From: Lachnospiraceae bacterium
Lineage (GTDB): Bacteria; Bacillota; Clostridia; Lachnospirales; Lachnospiraceae
Assembly (NCBI GenBank): GCA_024693225.1
Contig: JAILLI010000068.1
Span: 13,929-77,928, forward strand
Length of the DNA stretch: 64,000 bases
Direction of reading: 5' to 3'
Of this stretch, positions 23,766 to 34,992 are shown one piece after another. Made by a program: the position numbers and the translations under genes. The notes under the pieces were generated by a model. That model had not been told where the DNA came from. It was given only the letters and a program-made list of their open reading frames with translations, and made no database searches. Positions within the stretch are counted from its first letter, which is position 1; each line of letters begins with the position of its first letter.

Positions 23766-24305
23766 CTAATGTTCTCCCAATGACAATATCATATGGGCCG
23801 TCTCCGCCATAGTCCGTCCCATATCCATGCTGTTCTTCTGAAGATACCTGTATGCCTCGGGCTCCGTCATGTTGTTCCTGTCCATAAGAAGCCGCTTGGC
23901 TTCATCTATGGTAAGCCTGTCACCGTCTGAACGTACGGTCTTTTTCCTGTCATGTCTCCTGTATGAGACCGGCAGCTGCATCCTTATGCTGTTGACAAAA
24001 TCCGCCGTCTTAAAGGGAAGTGAAAGCATAATGATGTTGCCCGAATACAGACCCGCCTCCATGTTTTTCGTAAGCAGAAGCATGTTGATATTTGCGGGCA
24101 GATAGTTGTAGAGTTCCTCATACCCCATATCCCGCATTCTCCGCGTACAGACCACAAGGCTTATATCCATATCCTCGATCTTTCTCAAGACTTCGGACGC
24201 GGTATCGCATATGTAGACTTCTTCCCAGATATCGCTTCTTTTAATGATATCGGCTATCCGGCAAGAGTCGTCATGTTTGGGCATTGCCACCAGAATTGCG
24301 CCCAT
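23766..24305 (-). CDS. ANTAR-domain RNA-binding antiterminator with receiver-like N-terminal domain
   Basis: The C-terminal block IDEAKRLLMDRNNMTEPEAYRYLQKNSMDMGRTMAETAHMIL matches ANTAR. The gene lies directly downstream of glnA. Confidence 0.8.
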   Translation of the reverse strand: MGAILVAMPKHDDSCRIADIIKRSDIWEEVYICDTASEVLRKIEDMDISLVVCTRRMRDMGYEELYNYLPANINMLLLTKNMEAGLYSGNIIMLSLPFKTADFVNSIRMQLPVSYRRHDRKKTVRSDGDRLTIDEAKRLLMDRNNMTEPEAYRYLQKNSMDMGRTMAETAHMILSLGEH

Positions 24306-24343: not shown

Positions 24344-25630
24344 TCATATCCTGGTCAGATAATTGTCGATCTCCCACCGGGTGACCCTGCTCATGAAGTC
24401 TCTCCACTCATCCCTTTTGATCCTGGTGTATATCCTGATGAAATCAGGTCCCAATGCACTGACCAGCACCTGGTCTTTGCCCAGTTCCGTAACGGCTTCC
24501 TTGAGGTCTTCGGGAAGGGCTTCGACCTCCTCTGTTGACACCTTGTCAGCCCTGCATCCGGGTGCCGTCTTTTTGCTGATTCCGTCAATTCCGGCCGCAA
24601 GGGCTGCGGCAAAGAGAAGGTAGGGATTGGCGGACCCGTCGGGGAATCTTAACTCTATGCTCACATCATCGGGCTCTTTGTTTATAACAACAAGGGCTCT
24701 TTCCCCGTGATCTGCCCATGTCACCAGATCCGGAGCCCAGTTGCCCGCAAGTATCCTCTTGTAAGAATTCACGGAAGGATTACTAATGGCACACATGGCT
24801 CTTGCATGCGTCATGATACCGCCCGTGAACCAGTAGGCCTCGTCCGAAGGCTCCCCGTCGCTGCCTTTAAAGACGTTTACCCCGTCCTTCATGAGCTTTA
24901 AGTGTATATGCATGCCGGAGCCCGCCACATCCTGCCTGGGCTTAGGCATGAAAGTCGCATACATGCCGAACCTTTTTGCTATGCTCCTTACGGCGAACTT
25001 GAAGGTCTGTATGCTGTCCGCCATAGCCATGGCCTCATCTTCCTTAAAGTCGATCTCATGCTGGGCAGGGGCATATTCGTGGTGCGAGGACTCGATATCA
25101 AATCCCATGTCTTCAAGCATAAGGACTATATCGCGCCTGGCGTTCTCACCGAAATCCGAAGGTCCCACATCAAGGTATTCCGCTATCTCATGTGACGTCG
25201 TGGTCGGAAGTCCGTTGTCATCCACATGGAAAAGGAAGAATTCACACTCCGGATATGCATTCATGGTATAACCCTTCTGTGCCGCATATGCTACTGCATT
25301 TGAAAGTATGTACCTGGAGCTGTACTCGAAAGGGTCCCCGTTCTTTTTGCAAACATCGCAGACTATCTTGGCTACCTTGCCCTGCTGGGGTCTCCACGGT
25401 AATATAGAGAAAGTCTCTAAGTCGGGATGGAGATAGAGCTTGTCATCATATTCATACCGGTCTGCAAACATGGCAGACCCGTAAAAAGAATACCTGTTGG
25501 CAAAGACCTTATCCATCTGCCCCGGTGTTACCGCAATGTTCTTCAGTCTTCCGAATATATCGGTAAACTGCAGCCTGATAAACTCAACGCCTTCCTCTTC
25601 TATCATCCTGATTATGTCTTCTTTTCGCAT
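24344..25630 (-). CDS. glnA: Glutamine synthetase, type I
   Basis: I place the start at MRKEDIIRMIEEEGVEFIRLQFTDIFG (ATG at 25630-25628, SD AAGGAGAAGAAT) rather than the ORF-track start at 25714. GS blocks are present, including SGMHIHLKL. Confidence 0.9.
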   Translation of the reverse strand: MRKEDIIRMIEEEGVEFIRLQFTDIFGRLKNIAVTPGQMDKVFANRYSFYGSAMFADRYEYDDKLYLHPDLETFSILPWRPQQGKVAKIVCDVCKKNGDPFEYSSRYILSNAVAYAAQKGYTMNAYPECEFFLFHVDDNGLPTTTSHEIAEYLDVGPSDFGENARRDIVLMLEDMGFDIESSHHEYAPAQHEIDFKEDEAMAMADSIQTFKFAVRSIAKRFGMYATFMPKPRQDVAGSGMHIHLKLMKDGVNVFKGSDGEPSDEAYWFTGGIMTHARAMCAISNPSVNSYKRILAGNWAPDLVTWADHGERALVVINKEPDDVSIELRFPDGSANPYLLFAAALAAGIDGISKKTAPGCRADKVSTEEVEALPEDLKEAVTELGKDQVLVSALGPDFIRIYTRIKRDEWRDFMSRVTRWEIDNYLTRI

Positions 25631-25690
25631 ATTCTTCTCCTTAGATCCTTTACCGGTGTCGCCGCAAGATATGCGGCAGCTTCCACATTT

Positions 25691-25730
25691 AATAAAAAAG
25701 GGCATCATGAACACAATTACCCATGACGCC
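25691..25730 (-). terminator. Intrinsic-terminator-like hairpin inside the glnA 5' region
   Basis: The minus-strand RNA reads GGCGUCAUG-(12 nt)-CAUGAUGCC, a 9-bp stem with one G.U pair, followed by CUUUUUUAUU. It lies about 60 nt upstream of the glnA ATG. Confidence 0.55.
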
Positions 25731-25743
25731 TTTGTCCGTTGGT

Positions 25744-25772
25744 ATTATAATTCAAAAACGGAAGTAAATCAA
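25744..25772 (-). promoter_or_regulatory. Putative sigma-A promoter upstream of glnA
   Basis: On the minus strand, TTGATT (25772-25767) is followed by a 17-nt spacer and TATAAT (25749-25744). Confidence 0.45.
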
Positions 25773-25778
25773 TCGGTC

Positions 25779-25867
25779 TGTAACCGAGGTTGTAACCGAG
25801 GATCCTTTAGTTGTGATCAGAGCTTAAATCCGTGCTTAATTCCGAACTTAATTCCGAACTTAAATCC
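25779..25867. repeat. Two sets of 12-bp tandem direct repeats upstream of the glnA promoter
   Basis: On the plus strand, tgtaaccgagg[t/a] occurs twice (25779-25802). Four contiguous 12-mers follow at 25820-25867: gagcttaaatcc, gtgcttaattcc, gaacttaattcc, gaacttaaatcc. Confidence 0.9.
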
Positions 25868-25922
25868 GGATCCGATCCCGGCGCCGATACCCCGGCCAAC
25901 GGTGATGTTTTCGCATTGGTAT

Positions 25923-25955
25923 AAGAAACAGCCGGTTATTACCCGGCTGTTTCTT
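25923..25955 (-). terminator. Strong hairpin terminating the peptide-export operon
   Basis: The hairpin is AAGAAACAGCCGG-(7 nt)-CCGGCUGUUUCUU, a 13-bp perfect stem. It starts 20 nt after the stop of the 48-aa peptide gene. The U-rich run lies within the 3' arm (UGUUUCUU) rather than after it. Confidence 0.6.
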
Positions 25956-25974
25956 ACTGCCCGCTCCCACGGTC

Positions 25975-26121
25975 TTATTGAAATCTCTCATTATCTATTC
26001 TTGGCATCTGTACACTAAGGCCTCCTGATGCATTATCCATCACTTCGTCCGAGATCATCTCTTCTGTCGTATTATCTTCTTCGTTATCAACCTCTGTCTT
26101 ATTCTTATTATTTTCTTCCAT
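25975..26121 (-). CDS. 48-aa double-glycine-leader precursor peptide B (not in the ORF track)
   Basis: Hand translation gives MEENNKNKTEVDNEEDNTTEEMISDEVMDNASGG/LSVQMPRIDNERFQ, then TAA. SD AAGGAGGG lies 7 nt upstream of the ATG at 26121. The leader is paralogous to that of the neighbouring 81-aa peptide. Confidence 0.7.
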   Translation of the reverse strand: MEENNKNKTEVDNEEDNTTEEMISDEVMDNASGGLSVQMPRIDNERFQ

Positions 26122-26146
26122 TTGAATTCCCTCCTTATCCCGAGTA

Positions 26147-26392
26147 TCAAGCCGGCCCCAGATATTCTCTTCCGCATCCGCCGCATTCGTAGAGATGATA
26201 TCCTTCAGGTCCGTATCCTATTCTGTCTGCGTCGTCTGCTCCGCAAAACGGACAGTGACCACTATGCACTTTACACAGGCTGATCAGATTATCCCAGTCC
26301 ACCTTGTCCCAGTCAAATCCCCCACCGGCTTCATTGAGTTCTTCATCCGACAACATCTCTTCGCCCGTTTGCCCTTTTTTATTATATGTCAT
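26147..26392 (-). CDS. 81-aa double-glycine-leader precursor peptide A with Cys/His-rich zinc-ribbon-like core
   Basis: The product is MTYNKKGQTGEEMLSDEELNEAGGG/FDWDKVDWDNLISLCKVHSGHCPFCGADDADRIGYGPEGYHLYECGGCGREYLGPA. I prefer the second ATG (26392) because GGAGGG lies 7 nt upstream. The ORF-track start at 26407 has no properly spaced SD. Confidence 0.7.
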   Translation of the reverse strand: MTYNKKGQTGEEMLSDEELNEAGGGFDWDKVDWDNLISLCKVHSGHCPFCGADDADRIGYGPEGYHLYECGGCGREYLGPA

Positions 26393-26503
26393 AGCATAAC
26401 CCTCCATTTTCCTTTACATATTTTCACCCGGAAGATCAAAAATCCCATATCTCATTTTCGAAATCCGATCTTTTAAGTTATCTTTATTATACACAAAATA
26501 ATA

Positions 26504-28708
26504 TCACAAACATGTCACACTAAGCGCGAGCATTGTTATATCATCCGCCTGTTCGGCACCATCCGAATACGATGCGATATCATCTCTTACAAGTTTCAAT
26601 AAGCCTTTGCAATCCCTGTATCCATTACCGTTTAACAGTTTTTGAAGTCTTTCTTCTTCGTAAAATCCGCCCCCGCTGTCCCTTGCCTCGGTAACACCGT
26701 CCGTGTATATAAAGATCGCATCACCCGGACACAGCTTTATAGTGAACGTTTTGTATCCGGTATCCGCAAAAAGGCCGAGTATACGTCCTGATCTGTTCCT
26801 GACATACTCCCACCCGCCGTCATGATAAACAAGCGGCGGATTATGGCCGGCATTTACGCATTGAAGGATACCGGTTTTATGATCGAATACCCCGGCAAAT
26901 ACCGTAACAAACATATTCGCGTCATTGCCTTCACACAGTTTGAGGTTGGCATTCTTTATTGCTTCATCTATCCCGATACCGGACTCCATACATGAGTGTA
27001 TCTCGGTCTTGGCCGCCATCATGAACAGTGCAGCCGGGATCCCTTTACCTGATACATCGCCGACCACTATCCCTATCTTATCCTTTCCTATCCTGAAGAA
27101 ATCGTAAAAATCTCCCCCTACCTCCCTTGCAGGATCCATAGATGCATATATATCCATCGATCCGATATCAGGGAAAGCCGGAAAATCGGTCGGGAGTGCA
27201 TTTCCCTGGATATCCGCAGCTATAGACAGCTCGCGTTCGATACGCTCACTGATCTCATCCATGGACCGCTCCAGCGACTCCACGGTCTTATTGATGCCTT
27301 CCGAAAGTGCTGAAAACTCGACTAACCCGCCTACACCTACCCGTTCATCAAGAGCACCTTCCGTTATCTTATGAAGAGAAGCATTTGCTTTATCGATCCT
27401 GCTTACTATTACATGTTCAAGAAGCAGCCGGGTTGTGATAAGTGTAAGTGCAAGGATCGAGAAAGTGATCAGAAGTGACCAGTAAAGTGAAGCAGTTCTG
27501 CCCTTCAGGACCTTTTTCGAATCACACACGACAATATAGTACATGTCATCGAACTTTCTTACTACGCTGTACGTATATATATTTTTTCCTTCATCCGCAA
27601 AATCCTCGGAATAAATGGTGAAGTACTTCTGCCCGGACAGATGATCAAAGAATTCACCGGCAGTAGGAAATCCCCCAAAATAATATCCCCCGCAGAATTC
27701 TTCCAGGGTCCGCCCCAGATGGTAATCCGAATTGGCCCCTACGGCAATACCGTCTTTGAAAACAGCCACTCCGAAATCATTTACAGGATCATATCCTTTT
27801 GCCACTTCATCAATATCTATCCCAAACTCTTTAATATACCTCCTCATCCGGCTGATATCGTACTCCGCATCGCTCACGCTCTGTTCTATGAGCCGGTCAG
27901 TGATCATGAAAAACTGAACGGCAGCAGCGATCATAAAGACATTAAAGGCGATAAGAAACAGCCGGGTTGTGAAGATCTGTCGGACACTTCGCTCGGCGGA
28001 AGCTCTTTGGTCATCGCCTATCAGGCGGTACAGCACCACAGCAGCCGTTCCGGCAAAAAGGGTTTCCAAACCGGCCGTAACGAACGCATAGCTTTTGATA
28101 TATTCCCCCCTGACGTAGGAAAGGACCTGGGGGATCGTCATCTGCCTGTTCATATATTCAGGGGCCATGATAAACAGGTATTCAAAATACAGGGTCAGAT
28201 CTGCTGCCATAAACACTGCCAGGATGGAACATACCATGGCAATGCATTTCTTTGTATCGCTTTTGATCCTGCTCACGATCAGATAAAAGATCATTCCGAG
28301 CAGAAATCCGGCAACAGCAAACGCAACAACGAACCCTATCGGATTAACATGGTTTTTTTCCTCTTCGTCCAGCGGTATATAATACGCGTGAAGAAGCGAT
28401 ACGGTTCCGACAAAGAGGCCGAATATCCCGCCCCGGATCGGGCCAAACAAAAGTGCGCCCACAGCTACCGATACTATCACAAGCCTCAGGTTAAACTCGA
28501 ACAATACCGTCCCGGCTGAGATCTCAAAATGCCTGAAGTCCGCTCCCATCATGATCATTGATAGGCTGAAAACCACCAAGGTTGCGGCAACGGCCCGTTT
28601 CATATTATCACCATGGAGCCGCATTAAGCCTGCCCAATGTATGATGTTTTCTTTTTCTTCTTTTTCCCGACTGTCCATCACCTGTTCACTGTACAAACGT
28701 GAATGCAT
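26504..28708 (-). CDS. Polytopic membrane sensor phosphatase: multi-TM N-terminus, extracytoplasmic domain, HAMP-like linker, PP2C (SpoIIE/RsbU family)
   Basis: The first 280 aa or so contain about 8 hydrophobic segments. A soluble segment of about 110 aa follows, bounded by a further TM (LYWSLLITFSILALTLITTRLLL). The PP2C blocks are GGDFYDF, VVGDVSGKGIPAALFM, NAGHNPP, YTDGVTEA and DDITMLAL. The start is uncertain between 28708 and 28678 (MDSREKEE). Confidence 0.8.
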   Translation of the reverse strand: MHSRLYSEQVMDSREKEEKENIIHWAGLMRLHGDNMKRAVAATLVVFSLSMIMMGADFRHFEISAGTVLFEFNLRLVIVSVAVGALLFGPIRGGIFGLFVGTVSLLHAYYIPLDEEEKNHVNPIGFVVAFAVAGFLLGMIFYLIVSRIKSDTKKCIAMVCSILAVFMAADLTLYFEYLFIMAPEYMNRQMTIPQVLSYVRGEYIKSYAFVTAGLETLFAGTAAVVLYRLIGDDQRASAERSVRQIFTTRLFLIAFNVFMIAAAVQFFMITDRLIEQSVSDAEYDISRMRRYIKEFGIDIDEVAKGYDPVNDFGVAVFKDGIAVGANSDYHLGRTLEEFCGGYYFGGFPTAGEFFDHLSGQKYFTIYSEDFADEGKNIYTYSVVRKFDDMYYIVVCDSKKVLKGRTASLYWSLLITFSILALTLITTRLLLEHVIVSRIDKANASLHKITEGALDERVGVGGLVEFSALSEGINKTVESLERSMDEISERIERELSIAADIQGNALPTDFPAFPDIGSMDIYASMDPAREVGGDFYDFFRIGKDKIGIVVGDVSGKGIPAALFMMAAKTEIHSCMESGIGIDEAIKNANLKLCEGNDANMFVTVFAGVFDHKTGILQCVNAGHNPPLVYHDGGWEYVRNRSGRILGLFADTGYKTFTIKLCPGDAIFIYTDGVTEARDSGGGFYEEERLQKLLNGNGYRDCKGLLKLVRDDIASYSDGAEQADDITMLALSVTCL

Positions 28709-28988
28709 CTGTAAGTCCCGTCATATTAAATAACTCATATATTTTTTCCTGAGGATGCAAAAGTCTGAACTTTCCTCCTCTTGAAGTTGTCATTCTGGCT
28801 GTACCGACAAATACACGTATTCCCGCGGATGAAATATAATCCGTCAAGGTAAGATCGATATCTATATCGACTACTTCCGCCGGGAGCGCGTTTACTTCAT
28901 CCTGAAGCTCGCTTGCGGTCATGGCATTCAGTTCCCCTTCCATCCTTATCGTCGCTTTGCTTCCTTCAATAATGCTTTCAACTGTCAT
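28686..28988 (-). CDS. STAS-domain protein (anti-sigma-factor antagonist, SpoIIAA/RsbV-like)
   Basis: The protein is 100 aa. The DYISSAGIRVF block contains the Ser normally phosphorylated in this family. Confidence 0.8.
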   Translation of the reverse strand: MTVESIIEGSKATIRMEGELNAMTASELQDEVNALPAEVVDIDIDLTLTDYISSAGIRVFVGTARMTTSRGGKFRLLHPQEKIYELFNMTGLTDAFTFVQ

Positions 28989-29009: not shown

Positions 29010-31199
29010 TTAGTCGCCTTCAACCTGCTGTCTCTTTACAAGATCGGCAAATGCGCCGTTTTGTGCGATAAGTTCATCGTAAGTACCGTCTTCTGCGATA
29101 TGTCCTTCATCAAGAACTATGATCCGGTCACAATTCTTTATTGTTGAAAGTCTGTGTGCGATAACTATACGTGTGCAGTTAAGAGATGAAAGGGAATCCG
29201 AAACCTTCTTCTGGGTGATATTGTCGAGTGCACTCGTTGCCTCATCAAACAGCAGTATCTTCGGTTTCGGTGCTATAGCTCTTGCTATCATGATGCGCTG
29301 CTTCTGTCCGCCTGAAATACCTCCGCTTCCTTCGGAAATAAGCGTAAACATACCCATCGGCATTTCTCTTATGTCATCTTCCATTCCTGCAAGCCTTGCA
29401 GCCTCCATGGCTTCTTCGAGGGTCAGCCCCGGAGCGGATATGGCTATATTTGTGAACAGGTCTCCGGAGAAGAGTTTTCCGTCCTGCAGCACGGTTCCGA
29501 TACGGCTGCGAAGAGATTTCTGATCGATGTTTCTCAGATCTTTTCCGTCATAATACACAGAACCCTTCTGCGGTGTCTCAAAACCGAGAAGTATCCTGAG
29601 CAGCGTCGATTTACCGCAGCCGGTCTTACCGGTTATCGCAACATACTGTCCGGGCTTTATCTTCAGAGTGATATTGTCAAGGACATTCGGCATATCATTG
29701 CGATAGCGAAACGTTACATTATTCAGTTCGATAGCTCCGCTCAGGTTTTCCAGGACGGGCTTATCCTCTGCTATCTCCGGTACGGTTTCCATGATCGGCT
29801 GTACCATTTTGATCGTCGAGATTATCTGCGAGATGCTCCCGGCTATACCTGCAAGCGAAAGGATCGCCCCGCTCATCATCCCGTATGCCGAATTGAAAGC
29901 ATAGTACTCCGATACCGAAACGCCGGAACCGATGGCCACCGCATAAAGGAGGATAGTCCCGAACAGGGATATAGTCATATTGATGATAGCTGTATACCTG
30001 ACAAACAGGGGCGGATTATATTTGATCTCCGAATTCTTCGCATAAAGATTTCCCCATTTTGCAAATGCCCGCCTCTCGGAACCGGACAGCCTTATCTTCT
30101 GGATACCGGATACAAGTGCAAAAGACATACCGCTCTCAACCGTCTCGGTCTCCATAAGCTTTCTGTTCTTACGTGTGGAGGCAAGGATCGACATTGTCGC
30201 AACAGCAAGTGTCACAAGTGTCAATATGACCGCAGGGGCTGCAAGTGCCGGGGTATAATGAAATATCTGAAAAACATAAACCACGGAGAAAAGCGCGGTC
30301 ACACTTGTTGACATACCTATGTCGACGACCTTTGTTATAAGAACATTCATATATCCCACACGGTTTGTCAGATCACCCGTCGAATACTTTTTGAAGAATG
30401 ATGAAGGCAGGGACAATATCCTCATCATGGTAGCTGCCTCCACACTCTGGTCAAGTTTTACGGATATCTTTCCCAGGACCAGGCTTTTGATCCCGCCGAA
30501 CAGGATCACGCTCACGGATACACTTATCATAAATACCGCTATGGCTATAAGCGCCCGGATACTTCCGCTCTCAATGACATCGGAGAACAGCATCCTGTTT
30601 ATCCAGGGCAGGAGCATACCGATAAGGGATACCAGGCCCGCAAAGGCGAGATATGTGATAAAGGCTCCTCTGTTTATGTTGTCAAATATATAGATCAGTA
30701 TTTCCTTAAACCCCAGCTTCTTTAACGGAAAGGGCTTATAAAAAGCGACCGCCTCATCGGAAAAGAGACTTTCCGTATGCGAGGTTACTTTTTTATATGC
30801 TCCGGTTACGGGATCAAGGTATTTGTAGCCGGTAAACTCCCTCGGGATAAGCGCAACAGGCTGCCCGTCAGCCGAATATGTTGTAAGCAATGCCCCCGAA
30901 GCGTCTTTGCGCCAGCCGCGTGCCAGTCTGACGGTCCTTGTCATTATCCCATGCGGGCGAAGCAGGTATTCGAGCACTTCATCAACTTTCTTTAAGGCGC
31001 CGGGGATCTCGATCATTTTGACATGATAATAATTCAGGATGTTTCCGATAGCATCCTTTGTCCGCTCCCTCTCATCATTAAGGGCGAGCGAAAGGCGCCT
31101 TCCCATAACGGATCCCGCGATCCTGATACAGGAAGCCTCAAAAGCCTCCCGGTCCGCCTTCTCTCTTGAATTTATCTGTTCTTCAACCCAATTGATCAT
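29010..31199 (-). CDS. ABC exporter (TMD-NBD) without active peptidase domain, NHLM/NHLP-bacteriocin-system type
   Basis: The N-terminal domain of about 150 aa has no catalytic Cys motif. Six TM segments follow. Walker A is GKTGCGKST, the signature is ISGGQKQR, and Walker B is LLFDEATSALD. Confidence 0.8.
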   Translation of the reverse strand: MINWVEEQINSREKADREAFEASCIRIAGSVMGRRLSLALNDERERTKDAIGNILNYYHVKMIEIPGALKKVDEVLEYLLRPHGIMTRTVRLARGWRKDASGALLTTYSADGQPVALIPREFTGYKYLDPVTGAYKKVTSHTESLFSDEAVAFYKPFPLKKLGFKEILIYIFDNINRGAFITYLAFAGLVSLIGMLLPWINRMLFSDVIESGSIRALIAIAVFMISVSVSVILFGGIKSLVLGKISVKLDQSVEAATMMRILSLPSSFFKKYSTGDLTNRVGYMNVLITKVVDIGMSTSVTALFSVVYVFQIFHYTPALAAPAVILTLVTLAVATMSILASTRKNRKLMETETVESGMSFALVSGIQKIRLSGSERRAFAKWGNLYAKNSEIKYNPPLFVRYTAIINMTISLFGTILLYAVAIGSGVSVSEYYAFNSAYGMMSGAILSLAGIAGSISQIISTIKMVQPIMETVPEIAEDKPVLENLSGAIELNNVTFRYRNDMPNVLDNITLKIKPGQYVAITGKTGCGKSTLLRILLGFETPQKGSVYYDGKDLRNIDQKSLRSRIGTVLQDGKLFSGDLFTNIAISAPGLTLEEAMEAARLAGMEDDIREMPMGMFTLISEGSGGISGGQKQRIMIARAIAPKPKILLFDEATSALDNITQKKVSDSLSSLNCTRIVIAHRLSTIKNCDRIIVLDEGHIAEDGTYDELIAQNGAFADLVKRQQVEGD

Positions 31200-31211
31200 A
31201 TTATTATCCGA

Positions 31212-33398
31212 TCATTCGCATGTTACCAGTTCTTTGTATCTTCCGTTATTATTCATAAGCGTCTCATGCCGGCCCCGTTCTATGACCTTTCCGCGATCAA
31301 GAACGATTATCTCATCACAGTCTCTTATGGTTGAAAGTCTGTGGGCAATGACGATGCAGGTTATTCCACGTCTTTTGATGGAACGGATGACTTCATACTC
31401 GGTCTTGCCATCAAGAGCACTTGTTGCTTCGTCAAGTATTATCAGTCTGGGATCCTGGGCAAGTACACGTGCTATCTCTAGACGCTGCCGCTGTCCGCCC
31501 GAAAGATCCCTTCCGTTTTCGCAGAGCCTGTAATTGTAACCGCCATCCCTGTTCATTATGTGCTCATGCAGCTGTGCATCTTTGGCTGCCATGATCATTT
31601 CATAATCTTCAATGGTGTCGTCCCACATTTTAATATTTGCTGATATCGTATCCTCAAAAAGGATGACATCCTGATCAACAACAGCAACTGATCCGGTAAA
31701 GATATTTCTGTCTATTTCCTTAATGTGTTTTCCGTCATACAGTATCTGTCCGCTCCACGGTTGATAAAGGCCGCTTATCAGCTTCCCGATGGTGGATTTC
31801 CCGCACCCTGAAGATCCGACTATAGCCACACTTTTTCCGCTTTTAAGTTCAAGGTTAAAATCTTCTATGAGCGGAGGTGCAAGCCTGGCATATCCGAACG
31901 TGACATGTTGTATTGAAATGTTTCCGGAAAGCTTGTCTTTAGGCTCCGAGGTGGAAGGATTTACATCAACGGCCAGGTTTTCGTCTCTCGGATATTCCAT
32001 TACATCCTCGATACGCTCCATCTGGCTCCTCATTTCCTGAATACTCTTACCGGCATTGACGAATGATCTGGCCGGAGCAAGAAAGCCTGACAGAAATCCC
32101 TGAAATGCAATGACCATACCGGGTGTATACTTACCCTTTATCACAAGATACACTCCCATGATGAGGATGATATCATTGACTACCGCTGTTGCGATCTCCG
32201 GAATGGTACCGATAGATGCCCCAAGCCTCTCAAATCTGACGTTCTGGGTGTTAACACTTGCCTGATAACCTGCCCATTTGCGGAAATACCCGTTTTCAGC
32301 CCCACTGCTCTTTATTGTATCTATCATATTGATACCGCTGGAGGTGGCCGATATCAGTTTTGATTCATCCCGCATCTGAACACGGGTTATATTTACCCTC
32401 TTTTTGCTGATTATCCTTGTCAGAATGAAGTTTATCAGTATCGAAGATATGCCGACCATTGTCATGCTTACGGAATACCGGAGCATTACCACCAGATAGA
32501 AAACAAGCATTGCCGAATCGATAAACAAAGGAGCGATCATATTTATGAGCGAGTCCGCGATCCCGGCATTGCTGCGGCGTCTGCCCTCTATGTCTCCGGC
32601 CATCCTCTGCGAGAAGAACTCCATCGGAAGACACAGCACATGCCAGAAATATGTCGCATTTCCTATAGCTGCGAACTTTCCGCTTATGCGAAGTGAATAT
32701 ATTGTCCTTATCCATTCGGAAACTATCTGAAGAAAAGCAACAGAACTGATCAGAATAAGAAAAGGGATCACAAGTGCGGGATTTTCGCCCGAAAGGAGAT
32801 CATCCATAAAGAATCTCGACAGTCCCGACATCAGGATCGAAAAAAAAGCAGCCAAAGCCGTTGTTATTGTAACAAAAGCAACGGCACCGCCGGTCCCCTT
32901 CAGTCGTTTTGCGGCAAACGCTTTCACACTTGCAGGTTTTCCCGAAGGTTCAAATCCCTCATCGGGCTCGAATATTATACATATGCCTGTGAAAGAGGTG
33001 TTGAATTCTTCCTCTGAAACGGTAACGGTCCCCCGGGCAGGATCATTAAGATATGCATTGCCGCCTTTAAAGCCTTTTAAGACCACAAAGTGATTCATGT
33101 TCCAGTGGATCACACAGGGGAAATTACCTTTTTCCTTCAGCCTCTGCGGACTGTACCTGTATCCCTGGGCTTTGAGGCCGTATGCTCTCGCCGCACGTGC
33201 AATATTTCCGGCCCTGGACCCGTCCCTTGATACCCCACAGTCCTTACGGGTCTGCTCAAGCGGGATCCACTTCCCGTAATATGCCAGTACCATGGCAAGG
33301 CAGGCGGCTCCGCATTCAAGGGCCTCCATCTGCATGATCACGGGTACTTTTGCAACACCATTTGCTATGGGCGCGTTGTTTGCTTTACGTCTGAACAT
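31212..33398 (-). CDS. Peptidase-C39-containing ABC exporter (PCAT)
   Basis: The N-terminal C39 domain has the catalytic Cys context QMEALECGAACLAMV, plus HFVVL and NDPA. The TMD follows. The NBD has GSSGCGKST, LSGGQRQR and IILDEATSALD. Confidence 0.9.
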   Translation of the reverse strand: MFRRKANNAPIANGVAKVPVIMQMEALECGAACLAMVLAYYGKWIPLEQTRKDCGVSRDGSRAGNIARAARAYGLKAQGYRYSPQRLKEKGNFPCVIHWNMNHFVVLKGFKGGNAYLNDPARGTVTVSEEEFNTSFTGICIIFEPDEGFEPSGKPASVKAFAAKRLKGTGGAVAFVTITTALAAFFSILMSGLSRFFMDDLLSGENPALVIPFLILISSVAFLQIVSEWIRTIYSLRISGKFAAIGNATYFWHVLCLPMEFFSQRMAGDIEGRRRSNAGIADSLINMIAPLFIDSAMLVFYLVVMLRYSVSMTMVGISSILINFILTRIISKKRVNITRVQMRDESKLISATSSGINMIDTIKSSGAENGYFRKWAGYQASVNTQNVRFERLGASIGTIPEIATAVVNDIILIMGVYLVIKGKYTPGMVIAFQGFLSGFLAPARSFVNAGKSIQEMRSQMERIEDVMEYPRDENLAVDVNPSTSEPKDKLSGNISIQHVTFGYARLAPPLIEDFNLELKSGKSVAIVGSSGCGKSTIGKLISGLYQPWSGQILYDGKHIKEIDRNIFTGSVAVVDQDVILFEDTISANIKMWDDTIEDYEMIMAAKDAQLHEHIMNRDGGYNYRLCENGRDLSGGQRQRLEIARVLAQDPRLIILDEATSALDGKTEYEVIRSIKRRGITCIVIAHRLSTIRDCDEIIVLDRGKVIERGRHETLMNNNGRYKELVTCE

Positions 33399-33410: not shown

Positions 33411-33635
33411 CTATCTGATGATATAGGTGATCGGTGCAACAGTTTTTCTTCCGGTATCCGTATTGATCGTGACCGTACCGAAAACTGCCCAGATAAATAT
33501 ACCTGCAAGAAGGATGATGACCGCCGTAAGGATCATCCACATTGAGGGCGTGGTGACTTTTATATAATCATCGAGTTGCTCCGGTGACTGTAATTTATCA
33601 AGAGTTTCCTTACGGAACAGTTTTTGTCGGTCCAT
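33411..33635 (-). CDS. 74-aa membrane protein resembling only the N-terminus of NHLM/NHLP-type HlyD secretion proteins
   Basis: The product is MDRQKLFRKETLDKLQSPEQLDDYIKVTTPSMWMILTAVIILLAGIFIWAVF... A strong SD (AGGAGGG) precedes the ATG. The gene lies 12 nt upstream of the PCAT gene. Confidence 0.65.
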   Translation of the reverse strand: MDRQKLFRKETLDKLQSPEQLDDYIKVTTPSMWMILTAVIILLAGIFIWAVFGTVTINTDTGRKTVAPITYIIR

Positions 33636-33657: not shown

Positions 33658-34860
33658 TTAATCCCTATAGATCAACGAGAACGCATAGCCCTCAAAGTTG
33701 ACGGCCGCGGTAACTGTGGCAGGGTTCATATCAGTATCGGCATATGTCCGGGTCCTGCCGTTCTTGTCGAGTGCCATGACGGCGAATGCTCTGCCGCCCT
33801 TCCGGTACTCCATGGGAACGATGATCGTCAGCACTCCGTTCTTTACGGTATCGTCAACCTTGCCGTTTATGGCCATGTTGAAAGAAAATACTTCCTTCCA
33901 TCCGGCTGTACGGTCAGCATTAAAGACTGCCTGTGCGGCAGGACCCTGTTTGGTCTTCCCCATCGCAAGCCCGTATACCGGCTGTCCGTTTATGGCCATA
34001 AACCCTTCAACGGTATCGGGGTTGACTGCTGCAGCTTTGATCTCTTTATCATCATCGTCATCATGTCCGGGCTCGGGCGAAGGATGAGGATCATCTTCAA
34101 TAACAACATCATTTATAGTGATAATATCCTTCAGGCCCTGTATCCTCCAGACACCTTTCCCCCGTTTGCTTATACACTCAGGGTGATCTGACGATCCGAG
34201 CTTTGTGATGATCTTACCCCTGTCTCTGGCAGAAACATCAATGTATCCGCCCTCCCATACCCAAACTTTCCAGTCGGGCAGCTGTTCACTATGATATGCT
34301 GCTTCGGGACCGCTGACCTTCATATCATCCCATTCTTCTCCGTTGTCCGAATCTTCGATAGCGATCTCAAACATTTCCTTTGAAGCGCTCTTACCTGTAA
34401 CGGTGCCTGCACTGCCATCGCTGTTGTGAAGATTTGCTTCCACCGTTCCGCTGTTATTTGTTACCTCTGCACCGGCATAATTGATCTTGACCCTGCCTCC
34501 GTCATTAACAACCTTTGCGTAGTTTCTTGTTACCTTACCGGCATTGGAGCCGACCACCTCTCTGTTGATCAGAATATCACCGTCTTCGGCATTTTCTTTG
34601 ACGGTGCCCAGATTATTTGTGATATCCCCCTTGTTTGTTGTGACCGTGCTTTTTTCGGAAACCTCACTGATGCTTCCGTTGTTGGTCCCGACATTATGAC
34701 CGTTCGTACTGTTGATCACTTCGTTTGCAGCGATCACATCAACATCCTTTGTGAGATTGTCGTGATCATCGACCGGCAGGGCCGCAGATACACTTATCGG
34801 GGCTGCTATAACGACAGCACACGTTAGAGAGATCATCTTTTTCAATATTGATCTATACAT
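33658..34860 (-). CDS. Secreted protein of unknown function (Asn/Gly/Val-rich repeat N-terminal half, acidic linker, beta-rich C-terminal half)
   Basis: I prefer the start at MYRSILKKMISLTCAVVIAAPISVSA/ALP (ATG 34860, AAGGAGG 12 nt upstream). The ORF track starts at 34887. This is a Sec-type signal peptide with no double-glycine leader. Confidence 0.6.
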   Translation of the reverse strand: MYRSILKKMISLTCAVVIAAPISVSAALPVDDHDNLTKDVDVIAANEVINSTNGHNVGTNNGSISEVSEKSTVTTNKGDITNNLGTVKENAEDGDILINREVVGSNAGKVTRNYAKVVNDGGRVKINYAGAEVTNNSGTVEANLHNSDGSAGTVTGKSASKEMFEIAIEDSDNGEEWDDMKVSGPEAAYHSEQLPDWKVWVWEGGYIDVSARDRGKIITKLGSSDHPECISKRGKGVWRIQGLKDIITINDVVIEDDPHPSPEPGHDDDDDKEIKAAAVNPDTVEGFMAINGQPVYGLAMGKTKQGPAAQAVFNADRTAGWKEVFSFNMAINGKVDDTVKNGVLTIIVPMEYRKGGRAFAVMALDKNGRTRTYADTDMNPATVTAAVNFEGYAFSLIYRD

Positions 34861-34992
34861 AAAACAAATATACCTCCTTGACGACATGGTTTAAGCCAAA
34901 GACCTGACTCGGTTATTATACAATATACAGGCTTTATACGTCTATATCATTAGATAAGTACCGGCCATTTCTTTACTTATTCATTTCTTATG

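Follow-up and report, generated by a model that had tools for sequence, protein, structure and literature searches.

In the ComC and BlpC systems of streptococci, a double-glycine (GG) leader is cut by an ATP-binding cassette (ABC) exporter with a C39 peptidase domain, and the released product is a linear peptide, 14-25 residues long and unmodified. The NHLP/Nif11-leader export systems, reportedly described by Haft and colleagues in 2010 (a study cited in PMC6363468), combine proteins of the TIGR03796, TIGR03797 and TIGR03794 models. The gene considered here, pepB, occupies positions 25975..26121 on the minus strand of a 64,000-nucleotide stretch of DNA from a Lachnospiraceae bacterium (assembly GCA_024693225.1, contig JAILLI010000068.1, positions 13,929 to 77,928), hereafter called the window, to which all coordinates below refer unless another contig or locus is named. 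We present herein a comparison of this locus with the described systems, from which it appears likely that pepB is a genuine small gene and that the neighboring LahT-like ABC exporter, which contains a peptidase, takes its 48-residue product as a substrate.

The LahA1-9/LahT system comes from Lachnospiraceae bacterium C6A11, a member of the same bacterial family as the host of pepB (PMC6363468). LahT150, the double-glycine protease domain of this Lachnospiraceae exporter, cleaved all seven precursors that were tested out of the nine precursors with unrelated cores in its own cluster, and the last 13 residues of the leader suffice for its action (PMC6363468). Changes at -3, at -8, and at -5 or -6 (the Glu in question is labelled differently in the text and in Table 1) are tolerated, and the variants V-4T and L-7A are still cleaved, while a charged residue at -4, -7 or -12 blocks the reaction (PMC6363468). 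As at the pepB locus, several precursor genes lie next to the exporter gene, and their products share conserved GG leader ends but have unrelated cores. The LahA cores are also short (2.35 kDa for LahA4 and 2.66 kDa for LahA7; PMC6363468). However, the LahA leaders are long and of the Nif11 type, whereas the pepB leader has 34 residues and does not match TIGR03798, and the LahA system has nine precursor genes as opposed to two in the window.

The streptococcal ComC/CSP-ComAB and BlpC-BlpAB pheromone systems have been reviewed elsewhere (PMC7595303). pepB resembles their precursors in its GG leader, its C39 exporter and its predicted unmodified, linear product of 14 residues. An earlier reading of the window (hereafter the sequence-only reading) had compared pepB to a competence pheromone, solely on the grounds that its core is short and Cys-free. 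However, ComC and BlpC are encoded alongside a cognate histidine kinase and response regulator, and no histidine kinase or DNA-binding response regulator is annotated near pepB, between ~22.5 and 38.2 kb of the window. The ComA peptidase domain matches PCAT1, the peptidase-bearing exporter subunit of the window, with E ~1e-8 to 1e-9; this exporter is of the NHLP/LahT type and not of the ComAB type. In addition, the ComC and BlpC cores show no sequence similarity to that of pepB. Given the lack of an annotated kinase/regulator pair and the different type of exporter, pepB appears not to be a pheromone of the ComC/BlpC type. With the NHLP/Nif11 systems, the locus shares both transporter subunits, each of which scores above its curated cutoff, and the type of motif at the leader end (...ELSDxEL..V/A.GG). 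Unlike the precursors of those systems, pepB and the neighbouring peptide, PepA, contain neither a Nif11 nor an NHLP domain; moreover, the HlyD-like part is represented in the window by a fragment of 74 aa only, no maturase is present, and a STAS/PP2C gene pair is inserted.

Results

Reading frame and expression signals of pepB

pepB consists of 48 codons and a stop codon, and the reverse complement of 25975..26121 is translated into MEENNKNKTEVDNEEDNTTEEMISDEVMDNASGGLSVQMPRIDNERFQ followed by the stop. Codons 1-34 (26121..26020) make up the leader, whose final residues are GG; the predicted core, LSVQMPRIDNERFQ, comprises the remaining 14 residues (26019..25978), and the stop codon is at 25977..25975. 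None of the 32 in-frame codons 5' of the ATG is ATG, GTG or TTG, so the start of the gene is unambiguous. A Shine-Dalgarno sequence, AAGGAGGG, can be read 7 nt 5' of the ATG (26129..26136, minus strand), and the distance between the stop codon of pepA, the preceding gene, and the ATG of pepB is 25 nt.

Downstream of pepB, folding of an 81-nt stretch revealed a 15-bp hairpin with a GC-rich core (25921..25957, minus strand), which begins 17 nt 3' of the stop codon. The stretch that contains it has a folding energy (dG) of -32.4 kcal/mol, with z = -6.3 relative to shuffled sequences. The U-rich run UUUCUUAU, with which the 3' arm of the hairpin ends, is part of that arm and does not form a free tail; probably for that reason, the hairpin was not listed by a simple consensus terminator scan. 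It represents a probable intrinsic terminator of the cluster.

The sequence-only reading had already proposed a 48-aa frame at 26121..25975, a Shine-Dalgarno site 7 nt before its ATG (recovered here at 26136..26129 in the direction of reading) and a strong hairpin downstream. The proposed translation agreed exactly with ours, and both signals were found. That reading had also called the gene unannotated. While pepB is indeed absent from the track of open reading frames (ORFs) of at least 60 aa, GenBank carries it as the hypothetical protein K6F28_04395, in a metagenome-assembled genome of a Lachnospiraceae bacterium. Pfam and NCBIfam scans of the product yielded no family match, nor did an Rfam scan of 25500..26600 yield a match to any RNA family.

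The double-glycine leader

The pepB leader ends with M I S D E V M D N A S G G, such that Ile is at -12, Met at -7, Ala at -4 and Ser at -3. It thus has the hydrophobic residues at -4, -7 and -12, followed by GG, that characterize substrates with GG leaders. A gap-free alignment of the pepB and pepA leaders contains 10 identities in 17 positions, as had been pointed out in the sequence-only reading, and BLASTP extended the similarity to 11 identities in 23 positions (E = 5e-6, for a single pairwise comparison). As judged from these alignments, pepB is paralogous to pepA in its leader.

The earlier claim that this leader fits the double-glycine consensus was examined with an ungapped log-odds matrix of 13 columns, made from 95 unique leader ends of related exporter loci, none of which came from the window. 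When the six reading frames of the window were scored 13-mer by 13-mer (79,755 positions in all), the GG site of pepA ranked first (22.4 bits) and that of pepB second (16.9 bits); the best unrelated site scored 7.0 bits, and the background mean was -38. Because a matrix from other genomes places pepA and pepB first and second, the pepB match cannot be put down to an acidic stretch that resembles a leader by chance, and the claim stands. An 18-column hidden Markov model of the leader, run with hmmsearch, was too weak (E = 0.2 for pepA and 2.2 for pepB), and the matrix was used in its place.

Neither pepB nor pepA matched the Nif11-like leader model TIGR03798 (~68 positions) at E <= 0.01 in NCBIfam, a model that is matched by long-leader peptides of related loci (E = 3.4e-9 and 1.3e-5). 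The overlap of pepB with the Nif11 leader type is confined to the last ~13 residues. The NHLP leader family TIGR03793 of NCBIfam did not match pepB either. By these profile searches, pepB belongs to neither the Nif11 nor the NHLP leader family. Within the known class of GG-leader substrates, it is a new orphan, already deposited as a hypothetical protein.

The adjacent exporter and the predicted processing of pepB

PCAT1 (31212..33398, minus strand), a LahT-like exporter subunit with C39 peptidase, permease and ATPase parts, is encoded 5 kb upstream of pepB in a common strand-cluster, which is the linkage expected of a GG-peptide substrate. It scored 881.6 bits with TIGR03796, above the cutoff, and E = 3.7e-34 with Pfam Peptidase_C39. 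Residues 1-150 of PCAT1 share 99 of 143 aligned positions (69%) with LahT150 (PDB 6MPZ; E = 8e-69). The Q..C motif (QMEALECGAA), the His region (HWN.NHF) and the Asp region (NDP) are all kept, and the C39 domain is intact-looking. ABC2 (29010..31199, minus strand) is the partner permease/ATPase without an active C39 domain, and scored 720.5 bits with TIGR03797, again above the cutoff.

By homology to LahT/LahA, the most likely course of pepB processing is as follows. The translated precursor would be recognized by the LahT-like C39 domain via the last 13 residues of its leader. Residues -12 to -4 would adopt a short helix, from which Ile-12, Met-7 and Ala-4 would insert into a hydrophobic groove on the C39 peptidase; neither these three residues nor Ser-3 belong to a class known to block LahT150. 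The Cys protease would then cut after Gly33-Gly34, and the PCAT1/ABC2 pair would export an unmodified, hydrophilic and approximately neutral 14-mer, LSVQMPRIDNERFQ.

The core is presumed to be unmodified, as the neighborhood does not encode a modifying enzyme. Among the ORFs examined at ~20-39 kb, none is annotated as a maturase, and a tblastn search of the 64-kb window found no homologue of the radical-SAM/SPASM maturase that 28 of the 80 related loci possess (see below). The cluster thus lacks the modifying enzyme that accompanies precursors of RiPPs (peptides made on the ribosome and modified after translation).

Core peptides of pepB and related loci

The pepB core has a monoisotopic mass of 1731.87 Da, a grand average of hydropathy (GRAVY) of -0.84 and a net charge of ~0, contains a Pro at position 6, and is free of Cys. 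To place it among its relatives, loci were collected through PCAT1, for which 569 relatives in species-representative genomes were confirmed by tblastn; the best 80, with 61-66% identity, were kept. They come mostly from metagenome-assembled genomes (MAGs) of Clostridia, including Lachnospiraceae and Oscillospiraceae. In the flanks of these loci, small ORFs that encode GG leaders occur in arrays; the leaders are either long and Nif11-like (...GELSDDELDNVAGG) or short and similar to those of pepA and pepB (e.g. MSEKNKKPLEPAELTDDELEQAAGG and MKETKKEVKKGKEQEVKLDSKKLTDEKIKDVSGG).

Cores of no more than 25 aa were found in 54 of the 171 GG peptides at these 80 loci, and 58 of the 171 were Cys-free. 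Examples of short cores, of 7-22 residues, are MSIWTYH, VLLRPKIKL, NIFEKVKKILVDIMK and RRHGEGEFDDYHKEGTKERR. A radical-SAM/SPASM maturase was encoded at none of the five loci with short cores only, compared to 25 of the 45 loci with long, mostly Cys-rich cores. In view of these counts and of the distribution of the maturase, a Cys-free and presumably unmodified core of 14 residues is a normal variant in this group.

Perhaps pepB is an antimicrobial, bacteriocin-like peptide that acts against competitors, as do the products of class II bacteriocin loci. Hydrophobic residues at -4, -7 and -12 followed by GG, together with a dedicated C39 exporter, are common to both, and the related loci carry hypervariable cores in arrays, as is typical of conflict systems, with many of the short ones being cationic and amphipathic. 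However, a class II bacteriocin has a cationic or hydrophobic core, usually of at least 25 aa, and an immunity gene. The pepB core is far shorter, neutral and hydrophilic, with a Pro in its interior; no small membrane "immunity" ORF occurs in the pepB cluster, and modification enzymes are also lacking. A pore-forming bacteriocin is disfavored by the size and neutrality of the 14-mer, by the Pro within it and by the missing immunity gene. pepB does not look like a bacteriocin, and an antimicrobial function is unlikely. For the 14-mer that is predicted to be exported, a non-lytic extracellular role, signal-like or otherwise, is favored.

Among the related loci, one 7-residue core, MSIWTYH, recurs in identical form behind diverged Nif11 leaders in paralogues of two Ruminiclostridium-labelled MAGs, with two copies in locus L061 (19782..20313) and three in locus L062 (20103..21138). 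That identical cores are repeated suggests that a very short secreted peptide is under selection for dosage.

Organization of the pepB cluster

pepB is the final gene of a minus-strand cluster, in which the order is HlyD-like fragment, PCAT1, ABC2, STAS, phosphatase, pepA, pepB and hairpin. The paralogue pepA (26147..26392, minus strand; GenBank K6F28_04400) encodes 81 aa, with the short GG leader MTYNKKGQTGEEMLSDEELNEAGGG and a Cys-rich core of 56 residues. The CPFC...CGGC spacing in this core is of the zinc-ribbon type, and weak matches to the Lar and IS1 zinc-ribbon models were obtained. CxxC...CxxC cores are also found in many GG peptides of the related loci. This pattern of Cys residues suggests that pepA and its counterparts may form a class of exported mini zinc-ribbon proteins.

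Directly 5' of pepA and pepB is the gene for a membrane phosphatase of 734 aa (26504..28708, minus strand), composed of a polytopic N-terminal domain, a HAMP region and a PP2C (SpoIIE) domain (Pfam SpoIIE, E = 5e-52, and HAMP). Its N-terminal ~430 residues (27400..28708) contain multiple transmembrane segments and match ECF_trnsprt (S-component-like) weakly. No homologue of this sensor half was detectable, and all 16 non-self database matches span only the C-terminal 31-43% of the protein. Relatives of the phosphatase were also tried as a route to homologous loci, and this was given up; only the PP2C half matched, and the two contexts examined were unrelated. The next gene upstream (28686..28988, minus strand) encodes a STAS protein of the anti-sigma-factor antagonist type (Pfam STAS, E = 1.3e-12; TIGR00377, 66.9 bits, above the cutoff).

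At the 5' end of the cluster, a HlyD-like ORF of 74 aa (33411..33635, minus strand) is 51% identical by tblastn to residues 3-61 of a family of ~158 aa. Members of this family, HlyD-like membrane proteins whose N-terminus matches TIGR03794, are encoded 5' of the PCAT1 homologue in 50 of the 80 related loci. On the basis of this alignment, the ORF in the window is probably truncated and covers only the N-terminal third of the family.

The cluster is flanked downstream by glnA and an ANTAR-domain gene (23766..24305, minus strand), and upstream by the genes for a 409-aa secreted protein and purA. The 409-aa protein (33658..34887, minus strand), encoded directly 5' of the exporter cluster, has a signal-peptide-like N-terminus and an acidic linker; it matched nothing in Pfam or NCBIfam, and none of the 80 related loci has a counterpart of it. 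The glnA leader (~290 nt, 25631..25920, minus strand) includes tandem repeats of 12 nt, with 3.8 copies at 25823..25868 and 1.9 copies at 25779..25801. At 25730..25701, ~60 nt 5' of the probable start of glnA (25630), there is also a terminator-like hairpin of 13 bp followed through by a T-run. Rfam gave no match to this leader. With the ANTAR gene just past glnA, this arrangement looks like an antitermination-controlled glnA operon.

Distribution of pepB and a divergent allele

A word-indexed search of 5.8e9 protein clusters with pepB retrieved only pepB itself and one variant, P0002, identical at 45 of 48 positions. No homologue was found by a profile search of 1.84e9 representatives, in which the single extra match, to a repetitive protein of 2,245 aa, involved profile positions 29-39 only. 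Nor were copies of pepB present in JGI metagenome contigs or IMG/VR. Three Logan contigs carry pepB, and with 99.6-99.96% identity they represent one strain with the window. The sequence-only reading had made conservation of the frame and leader in homologous loci a check on its gene call. This check did not turn out in its favor, as the pepB core is without a homologue except in near-identical strains and on one doubtful contig. Since the core has no homologue in the databases searched, cross-species conservation of pepB cannot be shown.

The P0002 allele differs from pepB at 8 of 147 nt. Four differences are synonymous and four nonsynonymous, which corresponds to a ratio of nonsynonymous to synonymous changes per site (pN/pS) of ~0.22. 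The frame, the position of the stop codon, the recognition helix and 13 of the 14 core residues are all kept. This pattern of substitution weakly supports coding selection on pepB.

P0002 resides on ENA contig L001 (1..2784), the first ~2.62 kb of which is a widespread phage gene block; the five genes upstream of P0002 keep their synteny in at least 75 of the 80 phage contigs retrieved from IMG/VR. There is no synteny with Butyrivibrio phage Ceridwen, in which only a 287-aa protein matches. The phage homology of L001 ends 10-27 nt into the pepB-like ORF, and the phages' own next gene also starts ATGGAAGAAAA.... The join is a word of ~20 nt that the phage gene and pepB have in common, ATGGAAGAAAATAA.... 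A phage-borne copy of pepB was considered and rejected, as a join at such a shared word is most simply read as an assembly chimera, or at best as a microhomology recombinant. L001 is probably a chimera, and for that reason it was used here for the substitution pattern only and not for genomic context. It also serves as a caution against reading context from short metagenomic scaffolds.

Such a narrow distribution might mean that pepB is an evolutionary leftover, in which a duplicated or acquired leader is joined to a degenerate core that is perhaps transcribed or exported but has no selected function. Its orphan status and the reduction of the locus relative to the canonical architecture, including the truncated HlyD-like ORF, fit this idea, as does an atypical base composition: the GC content of pepB is 36%, as opposed to 50% for the window, and that of its third codon positions (GC3) is 35%, as opposed to 46% for pepA and 51% for the phosphatase gene. 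The AT-richness could reflect a recent acquisition, or merely a composition rich in Asn, Lys, Glu and Asp. On the other hand, the ribosome-binding site and its spacing are perfect, the leader has kept its recognition positions, and the divergent allele has retained the frame, the stop and 13 of the 14 core residues at a pN/pS of ~0.22. A functionless remnant is improbable on this evidence.

A partner-switching module at related loci

When the ORFs of the 80 related loci were clustered, a recurrent order emerged: STAS, PP2C phosphatase, RsbW-like kinase (HATPase_c_2), short HlyD-like protein, PCAT1, ABC2, extracytoplasmic function (ECF)-type sigma factor, GG-peptide array and radical-SAM/SPASM enzyme. 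At least one of STAS, PP2C and RsbW-like kinase was present in 47 of the 80 loci, many contigs being truncated, and in loci with the module an ECF-type sigma factor often adjoins the peptide genes. The module was found in 15 of 18 loci with short cores and in 12 of 32 loci with long cores only (p = 0.003 by Fisher's test, which ignores phylogeny and flank length). The phosphatase of the canonical loci differs in its N-terminal make-up and has no Pfam domain ahead of the HAMP region. The window locus is a rearranged and reduced version, with STAS and PP2C encoded downstream of the exporter pair and with a truncated HlyD-like gene; the 64-kb window was found to have neither an RsbW-like kinase nor a dedicated sigma factor nor a maturase. 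Literature searches found no paper in which PCAT, Nif11 or GG-peptide loci are connected with partner switching.

The 14-mer could accordingly be imagined as a cell-cell signal that is sensed by the adjacent HAMP-PP2C phosphatase, whereupon STAS would be dephosphorylated and a partner-switching circuit switched. The STAS and PP2C genes are situated between the exporter and peptide genes, the phosphatase has a sensor half that, like the peptides, is an orphan, and the pepB core is pheromone-sized and hydrophilic. The frequency of the module at related loci, often with an ECF-type sigma factor by the peptide genes, and its excess among short-core loci point in the same direction. If true, this would be peptide quorum sensing without a histidine kinase or an RRNPP receptor. 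However, the evidence is one of association, and the Fisher test is uncorrected for phylogeny or truncated contigs. Envelope stress or nutrients could equally be what the module senses, with its role limited to regulating peptide production. The circuit in the window is incomplete, since it lacks an RsbW-like kinase and a dedicated sigma factor. Moreover, most short cores of the related loci resemble amphipathic helices, many of them cationic, and are not pheromone-like, whereas the pepB core is hydrophilic instead. A signal sensed by the phosphatase is therefore quite unlikely.

In a more general form, short, unmodified GG-leader peptides such as pepB might be ligands of the membrane PP2C phosphatases whose genes neighbor those of LahT-like exporters in many gut and rumen Clostridia, and might act via a STAS/RsbW-like/ECF-type sigma cascade in place of a two-component or RRNPP system, with the window holding a reduced version in which a unique polytopic sensor domain is matched to two orphan peptides. 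Judged from gene content, this proposal is doubtful to the same degree; if it held, it would constitute a new peptide quorum-sensing architecture.

Finally, that pepB is no gene but an ORF that arose by chance in the untranslated 3' tail of pepA, for which its shortness and its lack of a protein-family match might be cited, is hardly credible, as the second-best GG-leader match in the window lies 25 nt past the best one, a Shine-Dalgarno site is present, the hairpin follows pepB and not pepA, and the leader is significantly similar to that of pepA.

Discussion

The reading of pepB as a genuine gene, whose product is a substrate of the LahT-like exporter, is likely in view of an intact ORF, a strong ribosome-binding site, its place as the last gene before a strong hairpin, the match of its leader and the 69% identity of the C39 domain to LahT150. 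Several observations count against it. No homologue of the core was found in the databases searched beyond near-identical strains and one doubtful contig, and the GC3 of pepB is below that of its neighbors (46-51%). The locus is reduced, with a truncated HlyD-like ORF and without an RsbW-like kinase, sigma factor or maturase, and may be decaying. One antisense frame yields an identical split of synonymous and nonsynonymous changes between pepB and P0002, in a comparison with only 8 differences. In addition, the set of LahT150 variants did not include Ala-4 or Ile-12 (PMC6363468).

As a gene call, pepB carries little weight, and adds one orphan to the large and mostly uncharacterized LahT-type repertoire of Lachnospiraceae. 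Its locus nonetheless offers a clean, minimal test case, in which a leader of 34 residues precedes a presumably unmodified core of 14, a maturase is lacking and the exporter is a close homologue of LahT. Of more potential value than the gene call itself is the coupling of such exporters to a partner-switching module, which hints at control of peptide production or response in gut and rumen Clostridia.

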